64,000 nucleotides of DNA from positions 256,001 to 320,000 of the forward strand of contig CAWHAE010000018.1 of assembly GCA_963827235.1 (NCBI GenBank). Reading direction: 5' to 3'. Position numbers and translations under genes: made by a program. The notes under the pieces were generated by a model that worked only from the letters and a program-made list of their open reading frames with translations, was not told the origin of the DNA and searched no databases. Positions 1,148 through 19,801 of the stretch are shown here, piece by piece (positions within the stretch are counted from its first letter, which is position 1; every line of letters begins with the position of its first letter). The DNA comes from an uncultured bacterium. GTDB taxonomy: Bacteria > Chloroflexota > UBA5177 > JANWHV01.

Positions 1148-1333
1148 TCATGGCATCGGTGCCAGGCCCTCGGCTTGCACCACCCAGGTCCCGTCGTCAG
1201 GGAAGCCGGGCGCGGGCCCACCCGGCGCGCCATCCCAGCCGGCGACCATCAGGGCGACCGCCGCCAAGAGCCCGCCGTTACCCGGCAGGTACAAGGGCAG
1301 CCCTGGAGCCTGCGGGTTATGGCCGTTGGGCAG
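1148..1333 (-). pseudogene. C-terminal fragment of a six-hairpin glycosidase-like protein
   Basis: Manual translation LPNGHNPQAPGLPLYLPGNGGLLAAVALMVAGWDGAPGGPAPGFPDDGTWVVQAEGLAPMP*; no start, similarity ends abruptly at 1333. Confidence 0.7.
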
Positions 1334-3638: not shown

Positions 3639-3850
3639 GATGGCATGCTCCATTCAGATGGGCGCCGTTGAATATCGGTCCGGCCTGCCAGCTCCAGCAG
3701 CTTGCCTGCTATGCGCGCGCGCAGCGGCGCGTCCGCGTGCACGGTTGTGATGCCCTCCATGAGTAATTCAGGCGACGCAGCGGCGAGGGCGATCGCCAGC
3801 GCATCGTCCACGTCGGTGCCTACGTCGGTGTCGAGGATGATTCGCTTCAT
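3635..3850 (-). pseudogene. Truncated nucleoside hydrolase (N-terminal ~60 aa only)
   Basis: MKRIILDTDVGTDVDDALAIALA...LELAGRTDI then unrelated sequence; strong AGGAGGAG RBS. Confidence 0.8.
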
Positions 3851-3889: not shown

Positions 3890-4810
3890 TCACGATCCGG
3901 TGGCGCCCAGCTTCGCGAACATATCGGCAAAGATCGGGTCCCGATCGACAGAGCCGACTTCACGAATCAGGTGCCGGCGGGCGTCGTGACTCCAGGTGCG
4001 CTCGCTGGAAAGGACCGGACTGTGGACCAGCATGCTCTCCGCCCAGGCGGGATTCACCAGCCAGGCTACCGGCCCGACGTCCCAGATCGCCTTGGATCGC
4101 GCGAAATGATCGTCGTAGTAGGCCGAGTACTCTTCGGCCAGAAAATCGCCCAGCCTGCTTTTGCCGCGGACAAAGCGGTCGATCTCCGCCTCCGAAGTGC
4201 TCAGACGGTCGGTGACGGGCAGGCAGGGCACGTGAACCAGCGGCACGCCCGAATCAAACAGGATGCGCGACGCGTGCATGTCCTGCTTCAGGTTGAACTC
4301 CGACGCCGTGTGCCAGTAGCCGGCGTTGCCGCCCAGCCACACAACCACGATGCGCGACCGGATCTCCGGGGCCAGCACCAGCGCCGAGGCCACGTTGGTC
4401 GGTGCCGCGATCGCCACCACGTACAGCGGTTCGGCGCGATCCGCTGAAGCACGCGCGATCAGGTCGTCCACGGCCGGGCTGCGCACCGGCTGATCCGGCC
4501 CGGCCATCCACGACCGCGCCCCGCGAAACACGAACCCCTCGTGTGAGCGGCCGAGCAGATCCAGTAGCCGAAGGATCTCCTCGTAGCTCTTCTCCATACC
4601 GTCCGCGGGGCCGGAGGAGCGGTCGTTGTGGAAGGGAGCGGCATAGACCGCTTCCAGCTCGATACGCTCCGGCGACAGCATGGCGTATGCCAGCGCGAAC
4701 TGGTCGTCGATCTCGTTGTACGTGTCCGTGTCCATCACCATGGCGACCTTGCCGGCCGGCGGATCGAGCAGCGCCAGCCGCTCGCCCGCCCGCAACGCGA
4801 ATTCCGTCAT
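3890..4810 (-). CDS. Inosine-uridine-preferring nucleoside hydrolase family protein
   Basis: DTDTYNEIDDQFAL, IAAPTNVASAL, WLGG, EFNLKQD, IWD motifs. Confidence 0.92.
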   Translation of the reverse strand: MTEFALRAGERLALLDPPAGKVAMVMDTDTYNEIDDQFALAYAMLSPERIELEAVYAAPFHNDRSSGPADGMEKSYEEILRLLDLLGRSHEGFVFRGARSWMAGPDQPVRSPAVDDLIARASADRAEPLYVVAIAAPTNVASALVLAPEIRSRIVVVWLGGNAGYWHTASEFNLKQDMHASRILFDSGVPLVHVPCLPVTDRLSTSEAEIDRFVRGKSRLGDFLAEEYSAYYDDHFARSKAIWDVGPVAWLVNPAWAESMLVHSPVLSSERTWSHDARRHLIREVGSVDRDPIFADMFAKLGATGS

Positions 4811-5499: not shown

Positions 5500-5691
5500 C
5501 GGGCGCCTGCCGCGAAGTGCCGATTGCCATGCATCGACGAAGCAGATAGACGCGATTGACCCGGGCTGACCTGAAGACCAGACCCGCGCTGACCGGAGGC
5601 CGTGCTCAGATGGTGCCCGGCCTCCGGTATCTGCCTGCTGCCTCAGACGCCCGTAGCTGCCACGGCTCCGCGTAGCCAGGCAGAAGCACCG

Positions 5692-6771
5692 TCAGACGAC
5701 TGCGAGCAACGGCTGGTAGTCCAGGTCGTAGCCGAAGGCATGCGGTCCGACCAACGCCAGCCCGGCTTCGCTCCGCCAGGGAGCGGCGCAGGGCATCCCG
5801 ACCACGACCACGCGGAAGCCGTAGCGCAGCGTCTCCGTGGTGATCGGCTCTCCGCTGTCCTCGTTCAGCACGGTCACCAGGTCGGGCACCATGGCCACCG
5901 GCTTACCATCGCGCAGGGCGATCAGGTTCTCGTTCTGAAAGCGGATCTGCAGCTCGTGTCCCTCGTCCTCGCCCAATCCGCGGAATGTGGCCTCGCCGCG
6001 GGCAAAGCCCCGCTCGGTCCGCCGCTGCACATCCATGATCTTGCCGTGGAAGAGCCTGCGTCCGCCCGTTACGCTCAGCAGGGCGTCGATCGGGTTGCTC
6101 TTGTCACGGCGCGCGGCACGGATCGTGGCGCCCAGGCGAATAGCCAGGCTTACGCTGCCGGGAATCAGGGCCGCCTTGGCCTGTGCTCCGCTGAGCGCGT
6201 AGAGCGCCACAAAGGCAACGCCGCCCATTTGGATGGTCATAGTGCGTGCTATACGCTCCGCCCAGACGTTGTCGCACGTGTTGAGAATGGCGCTGTTTCC
6301 CTTTTCGTCGCCGATCGCCATGGGCGTGGCTGCGATGCCGTACATGGTCGGGCTCACCATCTGCAGCTCCGGGAATGCCCGGCCCATGCCGTCGGCATCG
6401 ACGATCGGCAATCCCAGCGAGGCGGCGACGATGAAGGGCGTGGTGGAATTGAGTCCACCGGCCTCGATCGGTGTCACCGCCGTGACCTTGCGGCCCAGAT
6501 ATGCCTCCAAACCCTGGAACGCGTGCACGATTTCGTCGCCGCGAGGCAGCTTCTCCACCATCACGGTCGGAGCGCCCATCATCGCCGCCGGCACGACCAG
6601 ATCGTCGTCGCCGAGGTCGGCCAGGTCTATCATGCTCACCCGGCCATGCTCCCGCATCGCAGCTATAGCAGTGAGCTTGCCGATATGCGGATCGCCGCCT
6701 CCGCCTGTGCCCAGCACCGCCGCACCCAGTGCCAGGTCATCCATGGCCTCCGGACCGACTTGTCGCCTCAT
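5692..6771 (-). CDS. DUF917 family protein (thiohydantoin desulfurase-like)
   Basis: GTGGGGDP, GAPTVMVEK, EAGGLNS, DADGMGRAFPELQM, FQNENL, PDL; ATGA overlap with upstream gene. Confidence 0.9.
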   Translation of the reverse strand: MRRQVGPEAMDDLALGAAVLGTGGGGDPHIGKLTAIAAMREHGRVSMIDLADLGDDDLVVPAAMMGAPTVMVEKLPRGDEIVHAFQGLEAYLGRKVTAVTPIEAGGLNSTTPFIVAASLGLPIVDADGMGRAFPELQMVSPTMYGIAATPMAIGDEKGNSAILNTCDNVWAERIARTMTIQMGGVAFVALYALSGAQAKAALIPGSVSLAIRLGATIRAARRDKSNPIDALLSVTGGRRLFHGKIMDVQRRTERGFARGEATFRGLGEDEGHELQIRFQNENLIALRDGKPVAMVPDLVTVLNEDSGEPITTETLRYGFRVVVVGMPCAAPWRSEAGLALVGPHAFGYDLDYQPLLAVV

Positions 6772-7865
6772 GCATCGCCTCCTCGCCGTAGCGGTTTGTA
6801 CTCCATGTCGTAGCCAAAGGCGCGCGGTCCAATGACCGCCAGCGCCTTCGGCGTGGCCATCAACGGGTGGCAGGGCAGTCCCAGCACCGCCACGCGCAGG
6901 CCATAGCGCAGCACTTCCGTCGTGATCGGCTGTCCCGACTCCAGATCCACCATGCAAATGAGGTCGGGTACGGTCGCCACCGGGCTGCCGTCGCGCCGGG
7001 CGACCAGATTCTCGTTTTGCAGGTCGATTTCCAGCATGGATCCGTTGTCAGCACCCAGCCCATGCAGCGTGGCGCGTCCCACGGCGAACCCGCGCGAGAG
7101 CCGCCGGTTGACGTCCACGACCTTGCCCTCGAACAGCAGCACGCCGTCGCAGGCGGCCAGGACCGCTTCCACCGGGTTGCTCTTCGCCCGGCGGGCGCGC
7201 TGCACAGCGTAGCCCAGATCTATCGCCTTGGTCACCGCGTTGGGCACGCTGTACTGCCGGATGAAGCTCCCGCGCATGGGAGGGAAGGCGTAGCCGGCGG
7301 CGGCACCCATGTCCACCGCCGTGGCACGCGAAAGCCGCTCCAGCCAGAACATGTCCTGCGTGCCCGTGAATACCACGTGGTTGCCCTTATCGTCCGCGAT
7401 AGCAGCCGGGGCAGGGGCATGGCCGTAGATGAAGAACGTGCACATCTGCAGCTCGGGAAACGCGCGGCCCATGCCGTCCCCGTCCACGACCGGGAGTCCG
7501 GCTTGGATGGCCGTGATCATCGGCTCCATGGAGTTTGCGCCGCCGATCTCGCCCGAGATGAGCGCGGTCACCCGCTCACCGGACGCGCGTTGCACGGCCC
7601 GCAAGGCCTGAAGGCATTCGTCGCCGCGCTCGATCTTCTCGATGCCTACGACCGGCGCGCCGATCCCGCCTACGCTGACCACTCGATCCTCGTCGCTCAG
7701 CTCCTCAAGCGGCAAGAGGGTCAGCTCGCCGCCGGTCGCCAGCAATTGTTGCGTGCGGAGCCGCCCGATATGCGGATTGCCGCCGCCCCCAGTACCGAGG
7801 ATGGCGGCGCCGATCTCGAGGGCCTTGACGTCGTCAAGCGTAAGAGTACGACCCTGCCTAGCCAA
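6768..7865 (-). CDS. DUF917 family protein
   Basis: GTGGGGNP, GAPVVGIEK, EIGGANS, DGDGMGRAFPELQM, LQNENL, PDLI; TTG start inferred. Confidence 0.9.
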   Translation of the reverse strand: MARQGRTLTLDDVKALEIGAAILGTGGGGNPHIGRLRTQQLLATGGELTLLPLEELSDEDRVVSVGGIGAPVVGIEKIERGDECLQALRAVQRASGERVTALISGEIGGANSMEPMITAIQAGLPVVDGDGMGRAFPELQMCTFFIYGHAPAPAAIADDKGNHVVFTGTQDMFWLERLSRATAVDMGAAAGYAFPPMRGSFIRQYSVPNAVTKAIDLGYAVQRARRAKSNPVEAVLAACDGVLLFEGKVVDVNRRLSRGFAVGRATLHGLGADNGSMLEIDLQNENLVARRDGSPVATVPDLICMVDLESGQPITTEVLRYGLRVAVLGLPCHPLMATPKALAVIGPRAFGYDMEYKPLRRGGDA

Positions 7866-9402
7866 CGGCCAGATCCCCGACCGCCTTGACGTGGATGCGC
7901 GTGGCATTGCTCGGCAGGTAGGCAAGCGGCACTTCCTCTACCTCCACGATCTGCACGCCGCCGGCCGCCGCGCCCGCTTCGATCGCCCGCTCTGTCGCCT
8001 GGCGCTTGGCATCTTCCAGCGCCTGCTCGCGCGGTACGTCGGAGAGCGCATAGACCCTGTCGATCTCACCGCTGACCTGGGCGATCGCCGCCCCGACGGC
8101 ATTTGCCACCTGGAAGTACGGCGGCCTGGTCGCCGTCAGCACGCCGATCTGCTCGCCCACCAGGATGCTGCCGCCGCCCACGACCAGCACAGGCACCGGC
8201 TCCGGTGTCAGCAGCATGCGGTCGCATGCCTCCGCGGCCATGCTCTCGATCGTGTCGACCGCTCGCCGCACCATCTTCTTCTCCAGGCCGCTCACGCGCC
8301 CGACTTCGCCGATCTCGGCCATTCCGGCCGCCACGGCCACGTCGGTAGCCGTGAGCGTGGCGCCGCCGAATACGAGGCCCTCCTCGACCAGCTTGTAGCC
8401 CACGCTCTGCGGCCCAACCGTGAGGCCCCCATTCTCAATCACCAGCGAGCCGCCGCCTAGGCCTATGCTCAGCACGTCGGGCATGCGGAAGTTGGTGCGC
8501 ACGCCGCCCACTTCGATCGCCACGCCCGCCTCGCGTGGGAATCCGCGGTGCAAAGCTCCAACGTCGGTGGTGGTACCGCCGATGTCGACTACCAGTGCCT
8601 CCTGCAGGCCGGAGAGGAAGGCAGCACCGCGCATGGAGTTGGTCGGGCCGGACGCGAAGGTCAGCACGGGGAAGCGCTTGGCGTACTCCGCGGTCATCAG
8701 CGTGCCGTCGTTCTGCGTGAGGTAAAGCGGCGCCGTGATGCCCGCATCGGCGAGCGCCTTGGCAAACGCCCCGAGCACACGTTCGCCCAGGGGCTGCAGA
8801 CAGGCGTTCAGAATCGCCGCGTTCTCGCGCTCGAGCAGACCGATCCGCCCGATCTCCTCCGAGATCGTGATGCGCGCGTCGGGCAGCTCCTCGGCGAGTA
8901 TCGCCGCCGCGCGCTTCTCCATCTCGGGGTTGATGGGCGAGAAGACGGCCGACACGGCGATGGCCTTGATACCGCGCTCCCGGATCTGCCCGGCGATACC
9001 GCGCAGCTCTGCCTCATCCAGAGCGGAAATCTCGCGCCCGTCGAACTCGTAGCCGCCGTGTGCGAGGAACCAGCAGTTGCCCACGGCGTCGCGCAGATCC
9101 TCCGGCCAGTCGACCATGGGGGGCAGAGACTGCGCGGCCGGCAGGCACAGCCTGACCGCCGCCACGCGGGCCAGATCGCGACGCTGTACCACGGCATTGG
9201 TGAACTGCGTGGTACCGATCATCAGGGCGCCTATTTGCCCAGGGCCGACCTTCGCCTGAGTGAGCAACACGTTCAGCGCGGCCGTGATGCCGGCTGTGAT
9301 GTCAGCTGAGTTATTCATCTTGACCCAATCGACAACCCGCGTGCCGTCCATGGCCACGGCGTCTGTATTGGTGCCGCCGACATCGATCCCTATTCTGAGC
9401 AC
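7858..9402 (-). CDS. Hydantoinase/oxoprolinase A-type ATPase (HyuA-like)
   Basis: IGIDVGGTNTDAV, IGTTQFTNA, ERENAAILNA, QNDGTL, SGPTNSMRGA, DIGGTTTD, GLGGGS, VANAVGAA. Confidence 0.93.
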   Translation of the reverse strand: MLRIGIDVGGTNTDAVAMDGTRVVDWVKMNNSADITAGITAALNVLLTQAKVGPGQIGALMIGTTQFTNAVVQRRDLARVAAVRLCLPAAQSLPPMVDWPEDLRDAVGNCWFLAHGGYEFDGREISALDEAELRGIAGQIRERGIKAIAVSAVFSPINPEMEKRAAAILAEELPDARITISEEIGRIGLLERENAAILNACLQPLGERVLGAFAKALADAGITAPLYLTQNDGTLMTAEYAKRFPVLTFASGPTNSMRGAAFLSGLQEALVVDIGGTTTDVGALHRGFPREAGVAIEVGGVRTNFRMPDVLSIGLGGGSLVIENGGLTVGPQSVGYKLVEEGLVFGGATLTATDVAVAAGMAEIGEVGRVSGLEKKMVRRAVDTIESMAAEACDRMLLTPEPVPVLVVGGGSILVGEQIGVLTATRPPYFQVANAVGAAIAQVSGEIDRVYALSDVPREQALEDAKRQATERAIEAGAAAGGVQIVEVEEVPLAYLPSNATRIHVKAVGDLAVG

Positions 9403-9496
9403 GTCCTTCCGATCCTTTCCATTCAACGAACGCGGTGCCATGACGGCCGGCACCATTGCCACGAGAAGCGACGAACTGCCTCGAACTTGAATGCTC

Positions 9497-10516
9497 CTAG
9501 CGACGCTCGTGCAAGAAGCATCGCACCTCCGATCCCTCCACCGGATAGAGCGGCGGCGGACTGTGCCAGCAGCGCTCGCTCGCGTGGGGGCAGCGCGGAG
9601 CAAAGGCACAGTATTCCCCCGGCTTTGCCGTGGCCGCGGCGTGGTGCGTGCCCTCCTGCACGGCAGGCGGCCGGATGAGCATCGCCTCCTCGGGCGTGAT
9701 CACGGGTACGGCGGAGATCAGAAGCTGGGTGTAGGGATGCTGCGGTGCCGCGAACACGCGCGCCGTGTCCCCGCTTTCCTGAACCTTCCCTTCGTAGAGC
9801 ACCAGGACCCGGCCGGCGATGGTGCGTACCAGGCTGATGTCGTGGGTGATGAACATGTAGGATAATCCTAGCCGCCGCTGCAGCTCGAGCAGTAGGTCAA
9901 TCACCTTCGCCTGTACCGAAACGTCGAGCGCCGACGTCGGCTCGTCGAGGATCAGCATCTCGGGACCGGCTGCAAGGGCCCGCGCGATGGCAACGCGCTG
10001 GCGCTGGCCACCGCTCAGACCGCCCGGGTGACGGGCGGCGAATTCCGGCGGTAGCTCGACCAGACCAAGCAGCCGCTCGATCTCGCGTCGCGCAACAGCG
10101 CCGCGCATGCCGCGGTGGATATGCAGGGGCAGCGCTAAGGCCTGTCCGACCGTCCGCCGCGGGTTTAGAGCCGAGGCAGGGTGCTGGAAGACCATCTGCA
10201 CGCGCCGCTTTTGATCGCGCGATCGCTGCCCGGACTCAGGCGGAAGAGCCTCGCCATCCAGCAGGATGGTGCCCGTGGTCGGACGGTAGAGGCCGACGAT
10301 GCTGCGAGCGATCGTTGACTTGCCCGATCCCGACTCGCCGACCACGCCCAGGATCTCGCCGCGGCGTACCACGAGCGAGACGCCGTCCACGGCCCGCTTG
10401 AGCTCCCGGCTTCCTCTCGTCTTGAAGTGCTGGCGCAGATCCTGCACCGACAGGATTGGTCCTTCCGGATCGCCGCGGCCGTCCGCGGTCGCGCGCGTCT
10501 GTGCGTCAGCGGCCAT
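9497..10516 (-). CDS. Oligo/dipeptide-type ABC ATPase (DppF/OppF-like)
   Basis: GESGSGKST, LSGGQRQR, DEPTSALD, C-terminal HPYT and C-x5-RC...C motif. Confidence 0.93.
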   Translation of the reverse strand: MAADAQTRATADGRGDPEGPILSVQDLRQHFKTRGSRELKRAVDGVSLVVRRGEILGVVGESGSGKSTIARSIVGLYRPTTGTILLDGEALPPESGQRSRDQKRRVQMVFQHPASALNPRRTVGQALALPLHIHRGMRGAVARREIERLLGLVELPPEFAARHPGGLSGGQRQRVAIARALAAGPEMLILDEPTSALDVSVQAKVIDLLLELQRRLGLSYMFITHDISLVRTIAGRVLVLYEGKVQESGDTARVFAAPQHPYTQLLISAVPVITPEEAMLIRPPAVQEGTHHAAATAKPGEYCAFAPRCPHASERCWHSPPPLYPVEGSEVRCFLHERR

Positions 10517-11540
10517 CGTACAACCAGCAGGCTACGCGATGGTCGTCCGCCCCGGCTGCAAACGACAGCGGGCGCTGTTCGGCGCAAATGGGCATGGCAT
10601 GCGGGCAGCGCGGATGGTAGCGGCAACCGCTTGGCGCCTCCGTATAGTTCGGCAGCGTGCCGGGGATACCCTTCGCGATCATCTGTCCCGTCAGTCGCGG
10701 CACGCATTCAAGCAGGGCGATCGTGTAGGGGTGGCGCGGGTTCGCAAACAGCTCGGCAGTTGCCGCTTCCTCCACCACGATCCCGGCATACATCACCGCC
10801 ACGCGGTCGGTCACCGTGCGCACGACGCCCATGCTATGCGTGATCAGCAGGGCGGAGCGGCCCTCCTCGCGTACCAGCCGTGTGAACAGTGAGAGAATCT
10901 CGGCCTGCACGGTGACGTCCAGCGCCGTGGTCGGCTCGTCCGCCACGATCAGCCAGGGATCGGTCGAGAGGGCCAGGGCAATGGAGACGCGCTGATTCAT
11001 GCCTCCCGAAAGCTGGAAGGGATAGGCACGCAACACGCGGCCCGGATCGTCGAGCTGCACGTGGCGCAGCAGGGCCTCCGCCCGCTCGTCAAGCTGGCTG
11101 CGCGAGAGGCGCTCGCCCCGCCGGCGACCGGCCTGGCGCAGTATCTCCCGCATCTGATTGCCGATCGTGAAGACCGGGTTGAGCGATCCGACCGGGTCCT
11201 GAAAGACCATGTTGAAGTGAGCCAGGATGACCGCGCGGCGATCGCGCCGCGACATGGTCCGCAGGTCAGCGCCGTCGAACTCGACCAGTCCCTCGATCTG
11301 CGCCGGCGGGCTGGCCAACAGGTCGAGCACCGCGCGCATGAGGACGGATTTGCCGCATCCGGTCTCGCCCACCACGCCGATCAGCTCGCTGGCGGCGATC
11401 TGCAGGTTGGCACGATCGATCACGCGCGCCCGGCCCTCGAAACTGCGGAAGGTCACGGACAGATCGACCAGGCGCAGGCTATGCGGCGTGTGCTTTGGCG
11501 ACGCGAAGGCGCCGGTACCGGGCTCCACTGAGTTACGCAT
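10506..11540 (-). CDS. Oligo/dipeptide-type ABC ATPase (DppD/OppD-like)
   Basis: GETGCGKS, LSGGMNQR, DEPTTALDV, GCRYHPRC. Confidence 0.93.
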   Translation of the reverse strand: MRNSVEPGTGAFASPKHTPHSLRLVDLSVTFRSFEGRARVIDRANLQIAASELIGVVGETGCGKSVLMRAVLDLLASPPAQIEGLVEFDGADLRTMSRRDRRAVILAHFNMVFQDPVGSLNPVFTIGNQMREILRQAGRRRGERLSRSQLDERAEALLRHVQLDDPGRVLRAYPFQLSGGMNQRVSIALALSTDPWLIVADEPTTALDVTVQAEILSLFTRLVREEGRSALLITHSMGVVRTVTDRVAVMYAGIVVEEAATAELFANPRHPYTIALLECVPRLTGQMIAKGIPGTLPNYTEAPSGCRYHPRCPHAMPICAEQRPLSFAAGADDHRVACWLYDGR

Positions 11541-11542
11541 GC

Positions 11543-12448
11543 TCAGACATCCACATCGAACAGATCTCGCAGCCCGTCGCCCAACAGATTGAAGCCGAGC
11601 ACCGCTACCACGATCGCCAGGCCGGGGAACACAGTCTCCCACCAGCCGCTGGGAAGGTCGCCGACTCCTGCCGACACCATGGTGCCAAGGTCCGCCTGCG
11701 GCGGCTGCACGCCCAGTCCCAGGAAGCTCAGCGCGGCGCCGATCAAGATCACGAAGCCGGCATCCAGCGTGACCTTGACCAGCACCGCGGAGGCCGCGTT
11801 GGGCAGAATCTCGCGGAACATGATGTGGATCGAGCCGGCCCCCATCAGGCGCGCCGCGTCTACGTAGTCCTCCTGCTTCAGCGACACGGTGATGCCGTGC
11901 ACCAGCCGGGCATGCCAGGTCCACCAGAGGGAGGTGACGGCGATCATCGCGTTAAACAGGTTAGGAGTGAGCACCGACGTGATGGCCATGGCCATGACCA
12001 GCGGCGGCACGGAGAGAAAGACGTCGGTCAGCCGCATCAGGACAGTCTCGATCCAGCCGCCGTAATAGCCGGCTACCAGGCCGATGATCACGCCCATGGG
12101 GACGCCGATGGCAAGCACGAAGAGCACCAGCACGAGCGAGGTCTGGTAGCCGAACAGAACCCGGCTGAAGAGGTCGCGGCCCGCGTTGTCGGTGCCGAAC
12201 ACGTGCTGCCACGTGGGTGGCTGCAGCATGTGCGTAAAGTCCACGAAGCTGCCCGCGGCGCTCGGGTACGGAGCGACCAGCGGAGCGAGCAGCGCGACCA
12301 GGATGACCGCCACGGTGAGGATGAGCCCGACCACCGCGGTGGAGTTGCGCGCGAATCTGTACCAGCCCCGCCGCCAGCTTTGCCTGCGCAGAGTGCCCAG
12401 GCTGGTCTGCGGCCCGCCCTCGGAGGTTGCGGACGCCGGCACTTCCAC
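11543..12448 (-). CDS. ABC permease (DppC/OppC-like)
   Basis: HVFGTDNAGRDLFSR, YVDAARLMGA (EAA loop), LSFLGLG, FNLLGDGLRD. Confidence 0.95.
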   Translation of the reverse strand: MEVPASATSEGGPQTSLGTLRRQSWRRGWYRFARNSTAVVGLILTVAVILVALLAPLVAPYPSAAGSFVDFTHMLQPPTWQHVFGTDNAGRDLFSRVLFGYQTSLVLVLFVLAIGVPMGVIIGLVAGYYGGWIETVLMRLTDVFLSVPPLVMAMAITSVLTPNLFNAMIAVTSLWWTWHARLVHGITVSLKQEDYVDAARLMGAGSIHIMFREILPNAASAVLVKVTLDAGFVILIGAALSFLGLGVQPPQADLGTMVSAGVGDLPSGWWETVFPGLAIVVAVLGFNLLGDGLRDLFDVDV

Positions 12449-12449
12449 G

Positions 12450-13472
12450 CTACACCGTCCCCTTCAGCCTGATGCGCGGGTCGAGGTAGCCACGCAGCAA
12501 GTCCATTGCCAGATTGGAGATCGAGAACATGACGCCGACGATCAGCACCACGCCCACGATCGCGTTGAGGTCCTTTTCCAGCATGGCGCGCACGCCGTAG
12601 CTGGCCATGCCCGGCCAGCCGAACACCTGCTCGATCAGGAAAGCCTCGCCGAATAGAGAGGCGAAGGTCAGACCGACCACCGTCAGGGCCGGGATCAGCG
12701 CGGGCTTGAGCGCGTACTTGAAGGCGATCCGGGCCCGCGGCACACCGCGCAATCCCATCGCCTGCACGTACTCGCGTCGCAGGATCTCCACCATGCTGGC
12801 GCGTACCAGCCGCACGACCTGCGAGAGTCCCGCTGCCGCAAGGGCAATGGAGGGCAGTATGAGATGCACGAGCGCGCTGCCGAACACCTGGAAATTGCCT
12901 ACCAGCAGCGAGTCGAGTGCCACCATGCCCGTAATCGTGTGGTGGAACTCCAGATTGGGACTGAGCTGGCCGCTCACCGGTAGCACCCCGAGCGCGTAGC
13001 CGAATACGAGCTGCAGGCAAATGCCCACCAGAAAATCCGGGGTGGCAACGCCGAACAGGGCCAGCAGGCGGGCTATCGCGTCGATCGGTCCATCGCGATT
13101 GAGGGCCGCGAGCACGCCGAGCGGAAGCCCCACCACGACCACGAGCAAAGTACTGGCCAATACCAGCTCCAGCGTGGCCGGGAACGTATCGCGAAGGTCG
13201 TCGAACACGTTGCGCCGCGTGAGAATGGCCGTGCCGAAGTCGCCGTGCACGGCGCCGCCCAAGTAACGTGCGTATTGCACCCAGACGGGCCTGTCGAGAC
13301 CGAAGTCATGATCCAGCGACTTGACCTGTGACAGCGTGGCGTTGGGACCCAGGGCGAGACGCCCTGGGTCCCCTGGCACCACACGGGCGAGGACGAACAT
13401 CAGTACCGACAGCCCCAGCAGCACGAGCACCGCCTGGGCGGTCCGGCGACCGAAAAAGGACAGCAGTTCCAC
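12450..13472 (-). CDS. ABC permease (DppB/OppB-like)
   Basis: PGDPG, GLDRPVWVQY, FPATLEL, EQVFGWPGM, YLDPRI. Confidence 0.95.
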   Translation of the reverse strand: MELLSFFGRRTAQAVLVLLGLSVLMFVLARVVPGDPGRLALGPNATLSQVKSLDHDFGLDRPVWVQYARYLGGAVHGDFGTAILTRRNVFDDLRDTFPATLELVLASTLLVVVVGLPLGVLAALNRDGPIDAIARLLALFGVATPDFLVGICLQLVFGYALGVLPVSGQLSPNLEFHHTITGMVALDSLLVGNFQVFGSALVHLILPSIALAAAGLSQVVRLVRASMVEILRREYVQAMGLRGVPRARIAFKYALKPALIPALTVVGLTFASLFGEAFLIEQVFGWPGMASYGVRAMLEKDLNAIVGVVLIVGVMFSISNLAMDLLRGYLDPRIRLKGTV

Positions 13473-13502: not shown

Positions 13503-15158
13503 CTACGACTTCTTCAGATCGTAGAACTGGTACTGGCCCGCCGGGATCCATTGGAAGCCGGTCACGCTTGGTCGCACCGCCTGTCTCCAGAGGTCCGCGA
13601 GCATGAACACGTCGGGCTGCAGCGCCACGATGCGCGCCTGAAGCTGCTTGTAGATCGCATTCCGCTTGGCCGTGTCCACGGTCAGGCGCGACTGGTCGAT
13701 CAGCTTGTCGACCTGGGGGTCGTTGAGCCATTCCATGGACGACCAGCTACCGGACGACTTGGAGTCGTACTGCTGGAAGAACATGCTGTCCGGCGACGGA
13801 TAGAGCACGTCGTAGAACACTTCGGTTACGTTGGGCGTGTCGCTGATCTTCGTGGCAAGCTCGGTGATCCGGTTCCAGGGCTGCGGGCTGATGCTGACCT
13901 TGAAGCCCAGCGGGCTCATGATGCTGTTGAAGAGCAGGGCAATCTGCGACTCGAAGATGGCGCCGGTGACGTAGCTCAGGGTGATCGGAATGTCGCCCTT
14001 GCCGGCATACTTGCTCTTGGCAAGCTCCGCCTTCGCCGCGGCCAGATCCTGCTTCGGCACCGGCAGACCGGCGTCATAGGCATCCTTGAACACCGGCGAG
14101 AGCGGGCCGCCGATCGCCGCGCCCGGACGCAGGTCGTTGCGCGTCGTCGTATAGTCGAAGGCCAGGGCGATCGCCTTGCGCACGTGAATGTCGTCGGTAG
14201 GGGGGATGCGCGTGTTCAGCTTGAGGTAGAACACGCTCGTGGTGGGCGACGACCAGATGTTGAAGCCCAGGCTCTTGAGTGTCGTGTAGGTGGTGTTGCT
14301 CTGGTAGTTGCTGGTCATGTCCAGCACACCGGTCTTGGCCAGAGAGATCACGGTGGGATCCGAGGCTGCCGAGAAAACCAGCACGCGCACCTCGTCGATT
14401 GCTCCGGCCTGCCAGCCGCGGAAGTAGCTGGGGAAGCGCTTCATGCGGAGCTCACTGCCCTCGACGTCGCTTTCCAGCGTGTACGGACCGGAACCGGCCT
14501 CGTTGGAACCGAGCCACGCCTGGCCATAATCACCATCGGCGCCGAACTTGCCGGACTTCTGGTGCGCCTTCAGCGTGGCCTTTTCCATGATGAACAGAAC
14601 CGCCATGGTAGACGGGAACGGCGCGAAGGGCGTGTGCAGCGAAAACTGCACCGTATAGCGATCCAACGCCTTCACCCCATCGGCGGTCAGATAGCCCAGC
14701 CAGACGAAAGAGTAGCCCTGGTTGATGGCAAGGATTCGCTGCGTCGTGTAGACGACGTCGTCGGCCGTCACCTCGTTGCCGCTGTGGAACTTGACACCCT
14801 TCTTGAGGTAGAAGGTGAAGGTCTTGGCATCCGGCGAGGCGGTCCACCGCTCTGCCAAACGGCCCGTCATCGCTCCGCTGGCGGTAGGAGTCAAGAGGGT
14901 ATCGTAAAAGTTGATAGAGGCCATGTTCTGGGTATAGTCGGTGCCGATCGCCGGATCGATGTTGCCGAACACCTGCACGGTATTCAGGGTCAGGGTATTG
15001 GAGCCGGCTTCCACGCGTTCTGCGTGGACGTCGAGTGCGGTGGACAGTTGGGCGAGCGTGGTAGCGCCGATGCCTAGGGCGGCAGCACGTGCCACGAAGT
15101 CGCGACGCGACAGATCACCGGCTACCACAGACGCGAGGAGTTGATCCAGCTTGCTCAC
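13503..15158 (-). CDS. Family 5 ABC solute-binding protein with Tat-like leader
   Basis: LSRRDFVARAAALG leader; LAERW...FYLKKGVKFHSGNEVTADDV; GSGPY; VRKAIALAFD; AGGAGG RBS before GTG. Confidence 0.93.
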   Translation of the reverse strand: MSKLDQLLASVVAGDLSRRDFVARAAALGIGATTLAQLSTALDVHAERVEAGSNTLTLNTVQVFGNIDPAIGTDYTQNMASINFYDTLLTPTASGAMTGRLAERWTASPDAKTFTFYLKKGVKFHSGNEVTADDVVYTTQRILAINQGYSFVWLGYLTADGVKALDRYTVQFSLHTPFAPFPSTMAVLFIMEKATLKAHQKSGKFGADGDYGQAWLGSNEAGSGPYTLESDVEGSELRMKRFPSYFRGWQAGAIDEVRVLVFSAASDPTVISLAKTGVLDMTSNYQSNTTYTTLKSLGFNIWSSPTTSVFYLKLNTRIPPTDDIHVRKAIALAFDYTTTRNDLRPGAAIGGPLSPVFKDAYDAGLPVPKQDLAAAKAELAKSKYAGKGDIPITLSYVTGAIFESQIALLFNSIMSPLGFKVSISPQPWNRITELATKISDTPNVTEVFYDVLYPSPDSMFFQQYDSKSSGSWSSMEWLNDPQVDKLIDQSRLTVDTAKRNAIYKQLQARIVALQPDVFMLADLWRQAVRPSVTGFQWIPAGQYQFYDLKKS

Positions 15159-15244
15159 GATCGAAGCCCTCCTACAACTGGTAGTAGCACTACTCGACGC
15201 TGAGCAGCCGCATACACCTGCAACGCCGAACAGATACGGCGAGG

Positions 15245-15258
15245 AATCATATATGATT
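15245..15258. promoter_or_regulatory. Perfect palindrome, probable GntR-family operator 1
   Basis: AATCATATATGATT, downstream of a minus-strand TTGACA (15289-15294)-18 nt-TACGGT. Confidence 0.75.
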
Positions 15259-15360
15259 GCATGTACCGTAAGCGATGGCTGCAATGTCTGTCAAGCGCCG
15301 GCTCGCGGCCCCTATACGAAACCGCAACGGAACGGATGATGCCATAGCGCCATCGGTGAC

Positions 15361-15374
15361 AATCGTATATGATG
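15361..15374. promoter_or_regulatory. Probable GntR-family operator 2
   Basis: AATCGTATATGATG, 12/14 identical to operator 1, upstream of the GntR fusion gene. Confidence 0.7.
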
Positions 15375-15456
15375 TGGCGGTGAACGGCAGCATGCGACAC
15401 AAGGTATGGTCAAACGCGCCGTTGCGTTATGCGGAGCCTGCTGGATTGGGGAGTCT

Positions 15457-17244
15457 GTGATCAACGACGGTGATCACCAGAGCAAGCACGAGCGAGCCTA
15501 CCAGCTCATTCGCTCGCGCATTCTGGATGGCAGTTATGCGCCCGGCGAGCGTCTCGTCATCGACGCGCTGGCTGGCGAATTCGGTATCAGCCCGGTCCCG
15601 GTGCGCGAAGCGATTCGCCGCCTCGAAGCGGAGGGTCGGATCGTCTATAGATACAACTCCGGCGCCCGGGTCGCCCTGACCGACGCCCGCCGGCATCTGC
15701 GTATCGGCATTGACGCCGGGCGCACGAGTACGGACGCCGTGTTGATGGACGGCTCGTCCGTGCTTGCCGCGGTCAAGCACCCGACCACCACCGACGTGAG
15801 CGGCGGTATCGAGGCCGCACTCGACGCGCTTTTGAGGGAGGCGCGGGCCGCCCCGGGCAGTGTTGACGCCGTGCTGATCGGCACCACACAGTTTTCCCGC
15901 GCCTTTGAGGAGCGACGGTTCGCACCTACCGCCTGTATCCGCCTGGGACTGCCGGCGACCGAAGCTGTCCCGCCCATGATCGACTGGCCGGACGAGCTCC
16001 GCCGGGCGACGGGCTGCCACTGCTACCTTGCTCACGGAGGTCACGCCTACGATGGGCGCGTGGTGGCTGCCTTGCGCGAAGACGAGCTCCAGGCCATCGC
16101 CGTCGATCTGCGGCGCCGGGAGGTCAAGTCCGTTGCCATCTCCTCCGTGTTCTCGCCCGTGGCCTTCGGTGCCGAGCAGCAGGCGGCCACGCTGCTCCAG
16201 GCCATGCTTCCCGGCGTCGCCGTGACGATGTCGCACCAGATCGGTAGCCTCGGCTTGCTGGAGCGGGAAAATGCCGCGATCATCAATGCCTGCCTTCGCC
16301 CCCACTCTCAGCTCGTCATCGAGGCCCTTCAGCGAATGCTGCGAGCAGCCGGTTTCGCCGCCCCCCTGTATCTGACTCAGAACGACGGCACGCTCATGAC
16401 CGCGGACTACGCACAGCGGTTCCCCGTGCTGACCTTCTCCTCTGGCCAGTCCAACAGCATGCGCGGAGCCGGTTTCCTCGCCGGGCGGCGCGATGGCCTG
16501 GTGGTCGACGTCGGCGGGATGACCACGGTGATCGGTATGTTGGTCGACGGATACCCGCGCGTGGCGGCAACGCCCGGGCTCATGGAAGGCGTGCGCACCA
16601 ACTTCCGCAGGCCGGACGCGCAAACCATGGCCATGGGCGGCGGCAGCGTGATCGAAGGCAACCCGCCGGCTATCGGCCCTACCGCGCTTGGCCCGGCGCT
16701 CTTCAAGGATGCGCTGGTCTTCGGTGGCTCCACGCTCACCCTCACCGACCTGGCCGTAGCGGCCGGCCAGACCAGCCTCGGCGATCCGGCGAAGGTCTCA
16801 CACCTGCGCTCCCTGGCAGAGCCAGTGCTCGAGCGCTTCGGCGAGACGTTGCGTCGAGCAGTGCAACGCGCCGGCGCACAGGAAGGGGACGGCCCCGTGA
16901 TCCTGGTCGGCGGAAGCGCCTGGCTGGCCCAGTCCGCGCTGGCCGGCCTGGAGACCACAGTGCCGGAGTACTACGCGGTGGCCAACGCGGTGGGCGCGGC
17001 GACTGCCCCGATTTCCGGTGAGGTGGACCGCGTGGTATCCCTGGCCGGCGTCTCTCGCCAGGACGTGCTGTCGGGAGCCGTCTCCGAGGCGGTGGGCCGG
17101 GCCGTGTCCGCCGGCGCCGCGCCCGATACGGTTCGTGTCACCTGGGCGGAGGACATTCCGCTCGCCTACTTGCCCGGCAGCGTCACCCGTGTGCGGGTCA
17201 AGGCGACGGGATCTCTGGCAATTGGAGTACCTCTTGGCCGCTAG
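15457..17244 (+). CDS. GntR wHTH fused to a full hydantoinase/oxoprolinase A-like domain
   Basis: AYQLIRSRILDGSYAPGERL...LAGEFGISPVPVREAIRRLEAEG then, in the same frame, IGIDAGRTSTDAV...ERENAAIINA...QNDGTL...VANAVGAA. Confidence 0.92.
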   Translation: MINDGDHQSKHERAYQLIRSRILDGSYAPGERLVIDALAGEFGISPVPVREAIRRLEAEGRIVYRYNSGARVALTDARRHLRIGIDAGRTSTDAVLMDGSSVLAAVKHPTTTDVSGGIEAALDALLREARAAPGSVDAVLIGTTQFSRAFEERRFAPTACIRLGLPATEAVPPMIDWPDELRRATGCHCYLAHGGHAYDGRVVAALREDELQAIAVDLRRREVKSVAISSVFSPVAFGAEQQAATLLQAMLPGVAVTMSHQIGSLGLLERENAAIINACLRPHSQLVIEALQRMLRAAGFAAPLYLTQNDGTLMTADYAQRFPVLTFSSGQSNSMRGAGFLAGRRDGLVVDVGGMTTVIGMLVDGYPRVAATPGLMEGVRTNFRRPDAQTMAMGGGSVIEGNPPAIGPTALGPALFKDALVFGGSTLTLTDLAVAAGQTSLGDPAKVSHLRSLAEPVLERFGETLRRAVQRAGAQEGDGPVILVGGSAWLAQSALAGLETTVPEYYAVANAVGAATAPISGEVDRVVSLAGVSRQDVLSGAVSEAVGRAVSAGAAPDTVRVTWAEDIPLAYLPGSVTRVRVKATGSLAIGVPLGR

Positions 17245-18334
17245 GCCGGCGTTGCAGGAACGCCGCCGGCTCGATGCCGAGGACGTGGAGCTGATCGCGC
17301 AAGGCGCCGGCGTGCTCGGCTCCGGCGGCGGCGGGCACCCGTATCTCGGGAAGCTTCTGGTACAGAGTGCCCTGCAGCGGGACAGGCAGATCTCGCTGAT
17401 CCCAGTCGAAGAGGCCCCGCCGGGGTTGCTGCTGTGCGTGGCACAGGTCGGGGCACCGGTCGTGCTGGCCGAACGGCTGGCACAGGGTGCCGAAGCCCTG
17501 CAAGTCTGCGCGACGCTGGAAAGCCATCTGGGCGAACCGGCGGTGGGTGTGGTCTGCAACGAAATCGGCGGCATCAACAGCCTGATCCCGCTGTTGGTGA
17601 GCGCGTATCGCAACATACCGCTGCTGGACGCCGATGCCATGGGCCGCGCCTTTCCCGGGATGCATCAGGATACGCTCAGCATCTACGGCGGCACGCCGGT
17701 ACCGATCGCGCTGTGTGACGACGAAGGGAACGTGGCGATCGTTCACGCTGCCGACATGCGGGCAACCGAGCGGATGGGGCGCGCGCTTACCACGGCCATG
17801 GGAGGCCTGGCCTACCTGGCGAGACCGGTGCCGCGGGCCCGGGGGCTGGACCAGGTGCTGATCCCGGGCAGCTATAGCAGGGCGCACGAGATCGGCCGCG
17901 CTCTCAAACAGGCGACGCGGAGCGGCGATCCTCGCGCCATCGACCTCGAGTGCGTCGGTGGTCGCCGCCTGTTTGCCGGCACGATACACGCCGTCGAGCG
18001 CCGCGCGCCGGGAGAACGGATTGGCGGCATGGTGAGCATTGCCGGGCAAGGCGACGGGTATCGGGGCATGCTGCGCATCGGCTTCCAGACCGAGTACCTC
18101 GTGGCCTGGTACGGCAAGGATCTGCGCGCCGCCACGCCCGACGTGATCAGCGTGATCGACGAGGATACCGGCGAGCCAATCAGTACCGAGGCGCTGCAGG
18201 TCGGGCTGCGCGTGATCGTGCTCCACCTGGCCGCCGACCCGCGCCTGACGACACCGCAGGGCCTTGCCTGCGTGGGCCCGGCCGCGTTCGGCTACGGCGT
18301 CACGTACGGCTCGCCTGAATGGCACACGGACTGA
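17234..18334 (+). CDS. Divergent DUF917 family protein
   Basis: GSGGGGHP, GAPVVLAER, EIGGINS, DADAMGRAFPG, PDVI; GGAG plus TTG overlapping the fusion's stop. Confidence 0.88.
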   Translation: MAARPALQERRRLDAEDVELIAQGAGVLGSGGGGHPYLGKLLVQSALQRDRQISLIPVEEAPPGLLLCVAQVGAPVVLAERLAQGAEALQVCATLESHLGEPAVGVVCNEIGGINSLIPLLVSAYRNIPLLDADAMGRAFPGMHQDTLSIYGGTPVPIALCDDEGNVAIVHAADMRATERMGRALTTAMGGLAYLARPVPRARGLDQVLIPGSYSRAHEIGRALKQATRSGDPRAIDLECVGGRRLFAGTIHAVERRAPGERIGGMVSIAGQGDGYRGMLRIGFQTEYLVAWYGKDLRAATPDVISVIDEDTGEPISTEALQVGLRVIVLHLAADPRLTTPQGLACVGPAAFGYGVTYGSPEWHTD

Positions 18335-18370
18335 TAGACATCCTCTCGCACCCGCCCGCGGGTGGGCGGG

Positions 18371-18492
18371 CCTGAAGTCGGTGATCCAACGCTTCGGTAC
18401 GCCGATCCTGGGACCCCGGCCGTCTCGACCGCGGCCGGAGATGCCCGGCATGGCGTCCATCGCCGCGGGACAACAAGCCGCTGCGTCACAAT
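18371..18492 (+). repeat. ~122-bp dispersed intergenic repeat, copy A
   Basis: Hand alignment to 19886..20006, about 26 differences in 122 nt. Confidence 0.8.
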
Positions 18493-18587
18493 GCCTAGGT
18501 AGGCTCCCGCGCGCCGGCCGCCGACTGCTAACGATCTGCCAAGTATGCTGAAGTAGATCGAAGTGGATCGCAGGGAGGCAATGACCG

Positions 18588-19025
18588 ATGACCACTGTTG
18601 CACATCTGTTGAGCGCCAAGGGAAGCGACGTCTGGTCCGTTTCGCCGGACGCGTCGGTGTACAAGGCCATCGAGTACATGGCCGACAAGCAAGTGGGAGC
18701 CCTGCTCGTCGTCGACGCCGGGCGCGTGGTCGGGATCGTCTCCGAGCGCGACTACGCGCGCAAGGTGATCCTTCAAGGCAGAGCCTCGGAATCGACTTTG
18801 GTACGCGAGATCATGACCGACAAAGTTCTCTTCGTGCGGCCGGAGCAGACGATCGAGGATTGCATGGCCATGATGACCACGCGGCGCATCCGGCATCTCC
18901 CGGTAATGCAGGGCGAGCGCCTGCTGGGCATGATCTCGGTCGGCGACGTGATCAAAGGTCTCCTCACCGAGCGCGACGTGCGCATCGAGCAGCTCGAGCA
19001 ATACATCTCCGGCCGGCGAGCCTGA
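18588..19025 (+). CDS. Tandem CBS-domain protein
   Basis: VGALLVV...VGIVSERDYARK, IRHLPV...GMISVGDV; GGGAGG RBS. Confidence 0.93.
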   Translation: MTTVAHLLSAKGSDVWSVSPDASVYKAIEYMADKQVGALLVVDAGRVVGIVSERDYARKVILQGRASESTLVREIMTDKVLFVRPEQTIEDCMAMMTTRRIRHLPVMQGERLLGMISVGDVIKGLLTERDVRIEQLEQYISGRRA

Positions 19026-19108
19026 GACCGGCGCGACGGCGCCCGGTTGAGCCACGCGCTACGCCGCGTTCTCGCCTCGCGGCACCGGCTGCGTAGCTTG
19101 ACCGCGGC

Positions 19109-19801
19109 CTAACAGGACCGGGCTGCCGGCCGGCTCTGCAAGAGACGGGCGATATCGGCGGCCGCGCCGACCAGTGACGATCGAATGACGTTGGCGTGCG
19201 CGAACGATTGCGTGGCCGTACTGGCATTTGGCACCGCGATCACGTGCATGCCGGCTGCTCTCGCGGCTGCCGTGCCTGCCTGGGAGTCTTCCACTGCGAC
19301 GCACCGAGACGGCGACACATGGAGACGATCGGCGGCCAGCAGGTAGATCTCGGGGGCGGGCTTTCCCAGCCGCACCTCCTCGCCGGACGCCACGGCATCG
19401 AGCAGGGGCACGAGACCAAGCCTGTCGACCACGATATCGACCTGCCAGCGCGGGCTCGACGAGGCGATCGCCACCGCGTAGCCCATCGCGGCTACCTGGG
19501 CGACGAGCTCGGGCGCGCCCTCCATGATCTCGGCCTCGTCTCGCAGCAGTGGCTCGTAAAACCGGGACTGTGCCTCGGAAAGCTCCTGGGCAGTGCCGGG
19601 CAAGGAGTACAGCTGTCGTAAGCTCTCCCAGGCTTCGATGTTGCGCACGCCGACGAACGGCAGCATCTCCTCCTGCGTGATGGTCAGGCCGATTTGCTCT
19701 CGGAACACGCGCTCGGCAGCCCGAAACTGCAGCGGCTCGGTGTCGACCAATATGCCGTCCATGTCAAAGATCACCGCGTCGCGGCTCAGTCCATCATTCA
19801 T
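19109..19801 (-). CDS. HAD-family phosphatase (beta-PGM/CbbY-like)
   Basis: IFDMDGILVD, ASSS, GKPAPEIY, VEDS. Confidence 0.9.
   Translation of the reverse strand: MNDGLSRDAVIFDMDGILVDTEPLQFRAAERVFREQIGLTITQEEMLPFVGVRNIEAWESLRQLYSLPGTAQELSEAQSRFYEPLLRDEAEIMEGAPELVAQVAAMGYAVAIASSSPRWQVDIVVDRLGLVPLLDAVASGEEVRLGKPAPEIYLLAADRLHVSPSRCVAVEDSQAGTAAARAAGMHVIAVPNASTATQSFAHANVIRSSLVGAAADIARLLQSRPAARSC

Follow-up and report, generated by a model that had tools for sequence, protein, structure and literature searches.

The stretch of DNA analyzed here (the window; 64 kb) carries a plus-strand gene pair next to a divergently transcribed uptake and breakdown operon. The upstream member of the pair (15,406–17,244) encodes a GntR–HyuA fusion, to which Pfam assigns a GntR wHTH (residues 29–89; 60 bits) and, from residue ~98, a HyuA-like ASKHA domain. 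Its real start is probably the GTG at 15,457; the database protein of the fusion (P0003) begins at MINDGD, and residues 1–23 of the fusion model have a pLDDT below 50. The downstream member, D3 (17,234–18,334), was delineated from its open reading frame, translation, Pfam matches and AF2 model as the third DUF917 / S-Me-THD-like gene and encodes 366 amino acids, with scores of 161.2 bits for PF06032 and 165.7 bits for PF20906 (Pfam gathering cut-off, 27). An identical product is present in the protein database (P0273), so that the same start was picked by an independent gene call. The genome contains only three DUF917 genes, namely D1, D2 and D3.

The two genes of the pair are interlocked. As described in an earlier note on this DNA, D3 overlaps the stop codon of the fusion: its TTG start (17,234–17,236) lies ahead of the TAG (17,242–17,244), giving an 11-nt overlap (17,234–17,244) that probably couples their translation. 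A GGAG tetramer 6 nt upstream of the D3 start (17,224–17,227, plus strand) may act as a Shine-Dalgarno-like element. The identical 11-nt arrangement recurs in all three other loci compared (ATG in L006 and L007, GTG in L089, each over TGA).

On the minus strand, the divergent operon opens with a family-5 solute-binding protein (13,503–15,284), whose real start probably lies near 15,158, just before a twin-arginine-like SRRDFV; the orthologue alignment of this protein begins at residue 43. It is followed by a Dpp/Opp-type ABC importer (9,497–13,472) with two permeases and two ATPases (12,450–13,472, 11,543–12,448, 10,506–11,924 and 9,497–10,516), by a short catabolic HyuA whose ATP motifs are canonical (7,858–9,609), and by the catabolic DUF917 genes D1 (6,768–7,925) and D2 (5,692–6,957), all assigned by Pfam and, for the HyuA motifs, by a motif table. 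The fusion and D3 mirror the hyuA–DUF917 order of this operon, as the earlier note had it.

Two candidate operators were recognized by their sequence pattern: the palindrome ATCATATATGAT on the side of the solute-binding protein (15,246–15,257) and ATCGTATATGAT on the side of the fusion (15,362–15,373), 84 nt before the GTG at 15,457. The 64-kb window contains two occurrences of the common pattern, ATCRTATAYGAT, as compared to 0.09 expected, and none of 100 shuffles contained two or more. The same 12-bp palindrome is found at the fusion loci of G003, G004 and L088, and at none of 87 other loci. A fusion-locus-specific palindrome within a divergent promoter region would fit a regulator. A scan of 15,000–19,200 for promoters and terminators returned neither promoter-like nor terminator-like sites.

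D3 had been proposed to be degenerate and catalytically decayed, given residues that differ from those shared by D1 and D2. The differences themselves are real in the alignment (RAFPELQM vs RAFPGMHQ, QNENL vs QTEYL, EK vs ER); their interpretation as a mark of decay did not hold up. Across the family, the columns of six of the seven flagged positions are variable (K81, E142, L143, Q144, M145, N288), and the sole flagged change at a highly conserved one, N286T, is restricted to a nine-member subclade. Among 44 columns with a conservation of 80% or more across 152 other DUF917 rows, D3 retains 42 (the exceptions being G261E and N286T), including E80, E110, N115, D132, D134, R138, E179, R183 and E287; D1 and D2 each retain all 44, and the 26-row D3 clade 41, in addition to 16 conserved columns of its own. 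Since deeper fusion-linked D3 relatives still contain RAFPE and QNE, the flagged changes postdate the recruitment of the pair and do not define it. The D3 clade does lack a G-F/Y motif that is present in 16/16 single-chain HyuA–DUF917 proteins, all of which also have the asparagine at position 286 that was lost in the window's subclade. N286T and the missing G-F motif are no more than suggestive of catalytic death.

The predicted structure of D3 is likewise that of an intact protein (AF2 pLDDT 92.8, pTM 0.92) and matches 2o3i, the sole solved DUF917 member (Foldseek E 5e-22, TM 0.76; profile match E 3.7e-33). Two desulfurase equivalogs share their Pfam domains with D3, yet D3 scored far below the cut-off of both (63.5 vs 440 bits for NF058529, thiohydantoin desulfurase; 89.2 vs 450 bits for NF058532, S-methyl thiohydantoin desulfurase), as did D1 and D2. 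A search of 401 genomes of one class with the NF058529 profile gave no match.

Estimates of selection, which the earlier note had asked for, revealed D3 orthologues to be under purifying selection: among the G003, G004 and L089 copies, dN/dS was 0.135–0.156 for D3 and 0.134–0.162 for the fusion, with 0.09–0.15 for the GntR-plus-linker part of the latter. None of the four loci has an interrupted D3 frame. Between the window and G003, D3 is the fastest gene of the locus (48–50% amino-acid identity), with a dN/dS of 0.37 as compared to 0.17 for D1 (computed after trimming an extended G003 frame that has an in-frame stop), 0.12 for D2 and 0.15 for the catabolic HyuA.

It is the partner of D3 that, judging by its sequence, is the decayed half. 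A set of 97 standalone HyuA proteins has 207 columns conserved to 95% or more, of which the fusion of the window retains 165. Among its losses are G106R (phosphate motif 1), T372M and D375V (both phosphate motif 2), and G504S with S505A. Accordingly altered motifs read DAGRTSTD for the canonical DVGGTNTD, DVGGMTTV for DIGGTTTD, and GGSA for GGGS. The same positions vary among the fusions: 17/20 carry another residue in place of the second glycine in phosphate motif 1, and 14/20 in place of the closing aspartate in phosphate motif 2; motif 1 of the basal fusion P0015 is near-canonical. Different fusion lineages show different replacements, a pattern that suggests a relaxation of constraint more than a novel way of achieving catalysis. 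The claim that both parts had decayed is supported for the fusion, whose clade has lost or varied its ATP-binding motifs, and not for D3 (42/44 columns; dN/dS about 0.14). The best fold matches of the fusion model are an N-methylhydantoinase (9h03), an acetone carboxylase (5svc) and a caprolactamase (6yra); it also matches the ROK regulators 1z05 and 5f7q at E values of about 1e-6 and, weakly, GabR chains.

Fusion and D3 are co-inherited, as predicted. D3 follows the fusion in all four loci with room for it (the window, G003, G004 and L089), which all stem from one genus-level group, and a D3-clade protein is encoded on a contig of equal size for 8/19 other fusion clusters plus one fragment; the remaining 11 clusters, with no D3 partner linked, were not counted as absence. 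The 20 fusions were recovered as a single clade (SH-aLRT 99) and the 26 D3-type proteins as another (SH-aLRT 100), and the branching order of linked pairs agrees between the two trees. Their co-divergence is tight (Mantel r 0.95 over 11 loci; none of 5,000 permutations as high). In a class sample of 21 genomes and a phylum sample of 401 genomes, the fusion was found only in G000, G003 and G004; two of the four loci returned by a metagenome scan (L088 and L089) contained it, and a scan of genome contigs yielded 80 standalone HyuA loci and no fusion. A chain joining GntR, HyuA and DUF917 was not seen among six longer matches, which is weak evidence against the reading preferred below.

Beyond the fusion, HyuA and DUF917 behave as a unit, in line with the earlier proposal. 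A DUF917 gene directly follows HyuA in 75 of 80 loci, across many phyla, and loci with two to six DUF917 paralogues per HyuA are common. All 12 long representatives scanned were single-chain HyuA–DUF917 proteins, and eukaryotes, too, contain single-chain forms. A 956-aa open frame in G087, considered as a bacterial single-chain fusion, turned out to be a HyuA gene with a permease frame overlapping its upstream end.

The notion that the fusion–D3 pair was copied from the pair of the adjacent operon had to be abandoned. AU tests rejected both a clade of D3 with D1 and D2 (p 8.6e-47) and a joint clade of the fusion with the catabolic HyuA (p 2.8e-69), and a recent duplication of the adjacent operon is thereby rejected as the source of the pair. 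These tests were run after the free trees had been seen, and the tested groups were those of the earlier note's hypothesis.

Structure prediction supports physical contact between fusion and D3. The modeled complex of the fusion's HyuA domain with D3 scored 0.80 (runs of 0.78, 0.81 and 0.80), as opposed to 0.01 for the best of three controls, with at least 81% of contacts in common between runs and a partner pLDDT of at least 86. The score mark was reached by 58/80 solved complexes and 2/110 mismatched pairs, counts that apply only approximately here, given that the alignments were our own. What the score expresses is the confidence of the model itself; close cousins of a true partner may pass as well, so it is no proof that D3 would choose the fusion rather than the catabolic HyuA. 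Searches of solved structures for D3 relatives returned a sole entry, the DUF917-only 2o3i. At the predicted interface, the fusion carries the standalone-HyuA consensus residue at 29/35 positions vs 296/474 elsewhere and is slightly more conserved than in its remainder (0.77 vs 0.70; one-sided p 0.04). Family-conserved motifs of D3 sit on the other side of this modeled interface, where E80/R81, P141 and T286 of D3 share a predicted pocket with residues 214–216, 248–249 and 282–285 of the fusion.

Given that D3 is intact, conserved and co-inherited with the fusion, they are likely to act together as a two-protein sensor for the neighboring uptake and breakdown genes. Our preferred reading, to which we assign a probability of roughly 0.5, is that an old HyuA–DUF917 enzyme pair evolved into a heteromeric sensor of the GntR type, in which D3 binds the ligand; this joint figure includes the part that D3 is a DUF917 protein that functions and is maintained by selection. 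The HyuA chain of the old pair would have acquired an N-terminal GntR DNA-binding domain, after which its HyuA domain would have lost the ATP-binding motifs and retained the surface that holds DUF917. The 11-nt overlap would keep D3 synthesis in step with that of the fusion, and D3 would dock onto the HyuA domain and supply most of the ligand pocket. The complex may then occupy the ATCRTATAYGAT palindromes between the divergent genes until the imported compound, or its product, binds and alters the grip on DNA, thereby switching the ABC importer–HyuA–D1–D2 operon as well as the pair's own operon. The contact within this scheme is modeled; that the complex binds DNA and senses a ligand, which way control runs, and that turnover has been lost are what we infer. 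Of the original co-sensor proposal, the recruitment of a HyuA–DUF917 pair survives, backed by co-inheritance, modeled contact, ATP-motif decay and the palindrome, whereas the decay of D3 and the copying of the adjacent operon do not. A more far-reaching version, in which the whole two-subunit enzyme turned into a heteromeric transcription factor, the fusion being devoid of ATP chemistry and D3 providing, at the former composite active site, a pocket that binds the ligand without turning it over, is tentative and, to our minds, somewhat short of even odds; the substitutions of the window's subclade, G142 (adjoining the interface residue P141) and T286 in D3 and A214 in the fusion, would then represent the last silencing steps, and the ligand of such a sensor would name the substrate class of the widespread HyuA–DUF917 enzymes.

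Because D3 keeps almost all conserved residues, it may still be an enzyme. It could be an active DUF917 enzyme merely co-transcribed with a regulator, possibly an isozyme present at a low level and responsible for making or removing the true inducer, alone or together with the catabolic HyuA. The 42/44 conserved columns and strong purifying selection would suit such a role, as would the frequency of loci with several DUF917 paralogues per HyuA and the enzyme names carried by the two DUF917 equivalogs in NCBIfam. We nevertheless consider it doubtful, as the overlap with the fusion is conserved and the two genes strictly co-diverge, the modeled contact is with a HyuA domain whose ATP site is degenerate, the D3 clade has lost the G-F/Y motif and the window's subclade N286, and D3 evolves faster than the catabolic genes (0.37 vs 0.17, 0.12 and 0.15). 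Less probable still, fusion and D3 together could combine a working enzyme activity with DNA binding, as a trigger enzyme such as PutA does, with catalysis itself as the signal. Interface residues largely as in the standalone enzyme and the near-canonical phosphate motif 1 of P0015 speak for this idea; the lineage-specific replacements of the motif 1 glycine and the motif 2 aspartate in most fusions make it unlikely.

Finally, D3 might be a functionless, decaying leftover of a duplication, as its standing as the fastest gene of the locus (dN/dS of 0.37 and 48–50% identity between the window and G003) could suggest. We regard this as very improbable in view of an open frame in all four loci, a dN/dS of 0.135–0.156 between close relatives, the 41/44 family-conserved columns and 16 additional ones of the D3 clade, and a confident model; the same observations contradict D3 being a pseudogene.

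The proposed heteromeric sensor resembles several known systems. With short HyuA/DUF917 enzyme pairs, it shares gene order and both folds, and single-chain versions of these pairs exist; here, however, the HyuA chain has a GntR wHTH and degenerate ATP motifs, and D3 belongs to a separate clade without the G-F motif, with a recent origin from the neighboring pair rejected by AU tests. MocR proteins sense through a PLP-enzyme fold, and MocR/GabR-type regulators likewise join a GntR wHTH to an enzyme-derived domain. In our case, the effector domain is an ASKHA HyuA domain and a separately encoded second subunit appears to be needed, whereas we know of no such separate partner for MocR. The ROK repressors Mlc and NagC also place a DNA-binding domain ahead of an ASKHA-fold sensing domain; the fusion differs in deriving from another ASKHA branch, in its GntR-type HTH and in the apparently heteromeric sensor. 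In CymR–CysK, AmiR–AmiC and TnrA–glutamine synthetase, a transcription factor reads a metabolite via a partner protein that derives from an enzyme or a binding protein, this partner being an active housekeeping enzyme or having a periplasmic-binding-protein fold. D3 would similarly be a second protein acting as co-sensor, except that here a single two-subunit enzyme would have given rise to both halves, which are passed on together as a dedicated pair.

In the portions of the literature available to us, DUF917 proteins are stated to be experimentally uncharacterized, and those portions neither state the substrate of short HyuA/DUF917 pairs nor describe DUF917 as a regulator partner. A search on GntR–hydantoinase fusions returned nothing on such fusions, judged by title, and the main texts searched yielded no paper on thiohydantoin desulfurase enzymes. 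If the preferred reading is true, an entire enzyme complex, beyond a single domain, would have been reused as a sensor, and the GntR family would gain a new effector architecture, consisting of an ASKHA pseudo-ATPase and a detachable partner. A fusion–D3 regulator beside a catabolic copy would provide an experimental handle on HyuA/DUF917 pairs: the ligand freeing it from the palindrome would likely be a substrate or product of the pathway of these widespread pairs. The catabolic HyuA–DUF917 copy of the window is located 6 kb from the fusion–D3 pair.

The third DUF917 gene of the window, D3 (17234–18334, plus strand), encodes a 366-aa protein with both DUF917 domains and directly follows a 612-aa ORF (15406–17244, plus strand) that joins a GntR wHTH (residues 29–89) to Hydant_A_N and Hydantoinase_A domains, referred to here as the fusion. 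Just as the earlier note had described, D3 overlaps the stop of the fusion, the window sequence having 11 nt common to the D3 TTG start and the fusion TAG stop and a GGAG 6 nt 5′ of the former; the motif differences it had listed were likewise all present in the alignment. An identical 366-aa product, from an independent gene call, was found in the protein database. Divergent from this pair runs a minus-strand operon comprising a family-5 solute-binding protein (SBP; 13503–15284), a Dpp/Opp-type importer with two permease and two ATPase genes (9497–13472), a short, catabolic HyuA (7858–9609), and the DUF917 genes D1 (6768–7925) and D2 (5692–6957). D1, D2 and D3 are the only DUF917 genes of the 8-Mb assembly, whose bin may be mixed (8.0 Mb with 9% contamination; four same-genus genomes measure 4.4–5.4 Mb). 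The operon may extend past D2 to a co-oriented downstream gene resembling inosine-uridine nucleoside hydrolases (3890–4810; PF01156, 77 bits; weak NCBIfam equivalog scores), which would hint at a nucleoside-derived substrate. At the left window edge, genes for a DUF3863/DUF3864 protein (1138–2142, plus strand) and an AlaX-like protein with a tRNA_SAD editing domain (2928–3653, minus strand) look unrelated to the D3 finding.

D3 had been proposed to be degenerate. Its alignment to 152 rows (150 representatives from a whole protein library search, plus D1 and D2) argued otherwise: 42 of the 44 columns of at least 80% conservation were kept, the exceptions being G261E and N286T. Most residues flagged by the earlier note vary across the family. 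Among the 152 rows, position 81 is K in 108 and R in 27, 142 is E in 87 (otherwise R, Q, K or G), 143 is L in 80 (otherwise I, V, M etc.), 144 is Q in 74, 145 is M in 113 and Q in 26, and 288 is N in 53, Y in 43 and F in 33; the sole highly conserved flagged position is 286 (N in 137). Within 16 representatives of at least 700 aa (12 were scanned, all single-chain HyuA-DUF917 proteins), E occupies 142 in just nine, and N286, G261 and an F or Y at 262 occur in all 16. The structure model of D3 was confident (pLDDT 92.8, pTM 0.92), with the DUF917-only entry 2o3i as the sole solved-structure relative found. Selection estimates, a check proposed earlier, likewise spoke against decay, with pairwise dN/dS of 0.135–0.156 among the D3 copies of two same-genus genomes (G003, G004) and a metagenome locus (L089); the fusion copies gave 0.134–0.162. 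Between the window and G003, at a dS of ~1 and thus near saturation, values were 0.37 for D3, 0.29 for the fusion, 0.21 for the SBP, 0.17 for D1, 0.15 for HyuA and 0.12 for D2, D3 evolving faster than the catabolic genes.

Phylogenetic analysis placed D3 in one clade of 26 proteins (SH-aLRT 100, stem length 0.33), sister to three proteins with canonical motifs, and put D1 and D2 in two further clades. Across the D3 clade, 41 of the 44 conserved columns are retained, and 16 further columns (including Q71, C108, C161, Y214 and T339) show conservation particular to it; GTGGGG is changed to GSGGGG and the G-F of GGFARG lost clade-wide. QTE is limited to a nine-member subclade containing the window D3, across which T286 is uniform, suggesting a newly fixed state and not drift. 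Since fusion-linked relatives (such as the database proteins P0275, P0284 and P0293 and the G003 and G004 copies) retain QNE, and several of them RAFPE, the changes listed earlier postdate recruitment rather than being its cause.

Judged from sequence, the decayed partner is the fusion, not D3. Of 207 columns at least 95% conserved among 97 close standalone HyuA sequences, 165 are retained in the window fusion, and the losses affect its ASKHA nucleotide motifs (DVGGTNTD to DAGRTSTD, DIGGTTTD to DVGGMTTV, GGGS to GGSA). Of 20 fusions, 17 lack the second glycine of motif 1 and 14 the final aspartate of motif 2; because the replacements differ among lineages, constraint on these motifs looks relaxed. 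The basal fusion P0015 is near-canonical and the catabolic HyuA canonical. The fusion still gave a good structure model (pLDDT 85.1), which best matched N-methylhydantoinase, acetone and acetophenone carboxylases and caprolactamase, then ROK repressors; disorder of fusion residues 1–23 fits a start at GTG 15457.

Regarding origin, AU tests, run once the free trees had been seen, rejected a single clade of D3, D1 and D2 (lnL difference 274.6, p 8.6e-47) and one of the fusion and the catabolic HyuA (233.6, p 2.8e-69), ruling out the adjacent operon as the source of the fusion–D3 pair. Given one old sister lineage in each tree, the suggested joint duplication of HyuA and DUF917 would still be the simplest history, albeit an ancient one from elsewhere than this operon.

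Inspecting co-occurrence, as the earlier note had advised, revealed D3 directly after the fusion in the window, G003, G004 and L089, with the 11-nt overlap found again in all three other loci; the metagenome locus L088 is uninformative, its sequence stopping before the expected place of the gene. At least eight of 19 other fusion clusters, and one fragment, have a D3-clade protein on a contig of identical length. The 20 fusions group as one clade (SH-aLRT 99), linked pairs branch in the same order in both trees, and pairwise distances correlate across 11 loci (Mantel r 0.95; 0 of 5000 permutations equally high), which shows co-inheritance, not contact. The fusion was seen in just three of five genus genomes and nowhere else among 401 sampled genomes of the phylum. 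G001 (87% complete) showed no match to the fusion or to DUF917, and G002 (83% complete) showed no fusion and one DUF917 gene; the locus may be accessory within the genus. D3 is a maintained, specialised DUF917 protein, tied by inheritance to the GntR-HyuA regulator.

More broadly, in 75 of 80 loci spanning many phyla a DUF917 gene starts −200 to +400 nt from the end of HyuA (in three of the other five, the contig leaves no room for it), and single-chain HyuA-DUF917 forms exist in eukaryotes. Multi-copy DUF917 arrays are common, as Phototrophicaceae and Anaerolineae loci (L016–L018, L026, L028, L045 and others) hold four to six paralogues around one short HyuA. In one Clostridioides difficile transcriptome table, neighbouring DUF917 and hydantoinase genes (CDR20291_1616, 1617) have an equal fold change of 1.18 (PMC12915319).

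Structure prediction, also proposed earlier, was applied to fusion residues 95–612 with D3 and to three controls. The complex scored 0.80 (runs 0.78, 0.81, 0.80) versus 0.01 for the best control; of solved complexes, 58 of 80 reach the mark for such scores, as do 2 of 110 mismatched pairs, counts that are approximate here, with own alignments used. Runs had at least 81% of contacts in common and partner pLDDT of at least 86. This lends support to binding of D3 by the fusion HyuA domain, not to any preference of D3 for it over the catabolic HyuA. The modelled interface comprises G32, G73–V77, A79–G85 (including E80 and R81), P141 and T286 of D3, and 183–188, 214–216, 248–249, 282–285 and 583–590 of the fusion. 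The standalone consensus is kept at 29 of 35 fusion interface positions versus 296 of 474 elsewhere, and conservation is only slightly higher at the interface (0.77 versus 0.70, p 0.04). Conserved DUF917 motifs at this predicted interface suggest a composite site. E214, invariant in the 97 standalone HyuA proteins, is replaced by A in the window fusion and retained in just 10 of 20 fusions.

Our best reading, with a probability of about 0.5, is that fusion and D3 form a heteromer that acts as sensor for the divergent operon of import and catabolism. D3 is probably also bound physically to the regulator, whose ATP site looks dead. The main rival, to which the family columns kept by D3 lend themselves, takes D3 for a still active enzyme that merely shares a transcript with the regulator; we consider it the less likely of the two.

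For such a sensor, a candidate operator lies between the divergent genes: the palindrome ATCRTATAYGAT starts at 15246 and 15362, two copies in 64 kb versus 0.09 expected (0 of 100 shuffles had at least two), each ~85–90 nt before one gene when the SBP start is taken near 15158 and the fusion start at 15457. The intergenic regions of G003, G004 and L088 also contain the pattern, which was absent from all 87 other loci searched; L089 offers just 325 nt 5′ of the fusion. The L088 fusion–SBP intergenic region spans ~620 nt and carries, at 5527–5579, 22-nt inverted or tandem GATC-rich repeats not present in the window. At 15457–15477, where the window fusion probably begins with GTG, sits a 10-nt inverted repeat (GTGATCAACG / CGGTGATCAC).
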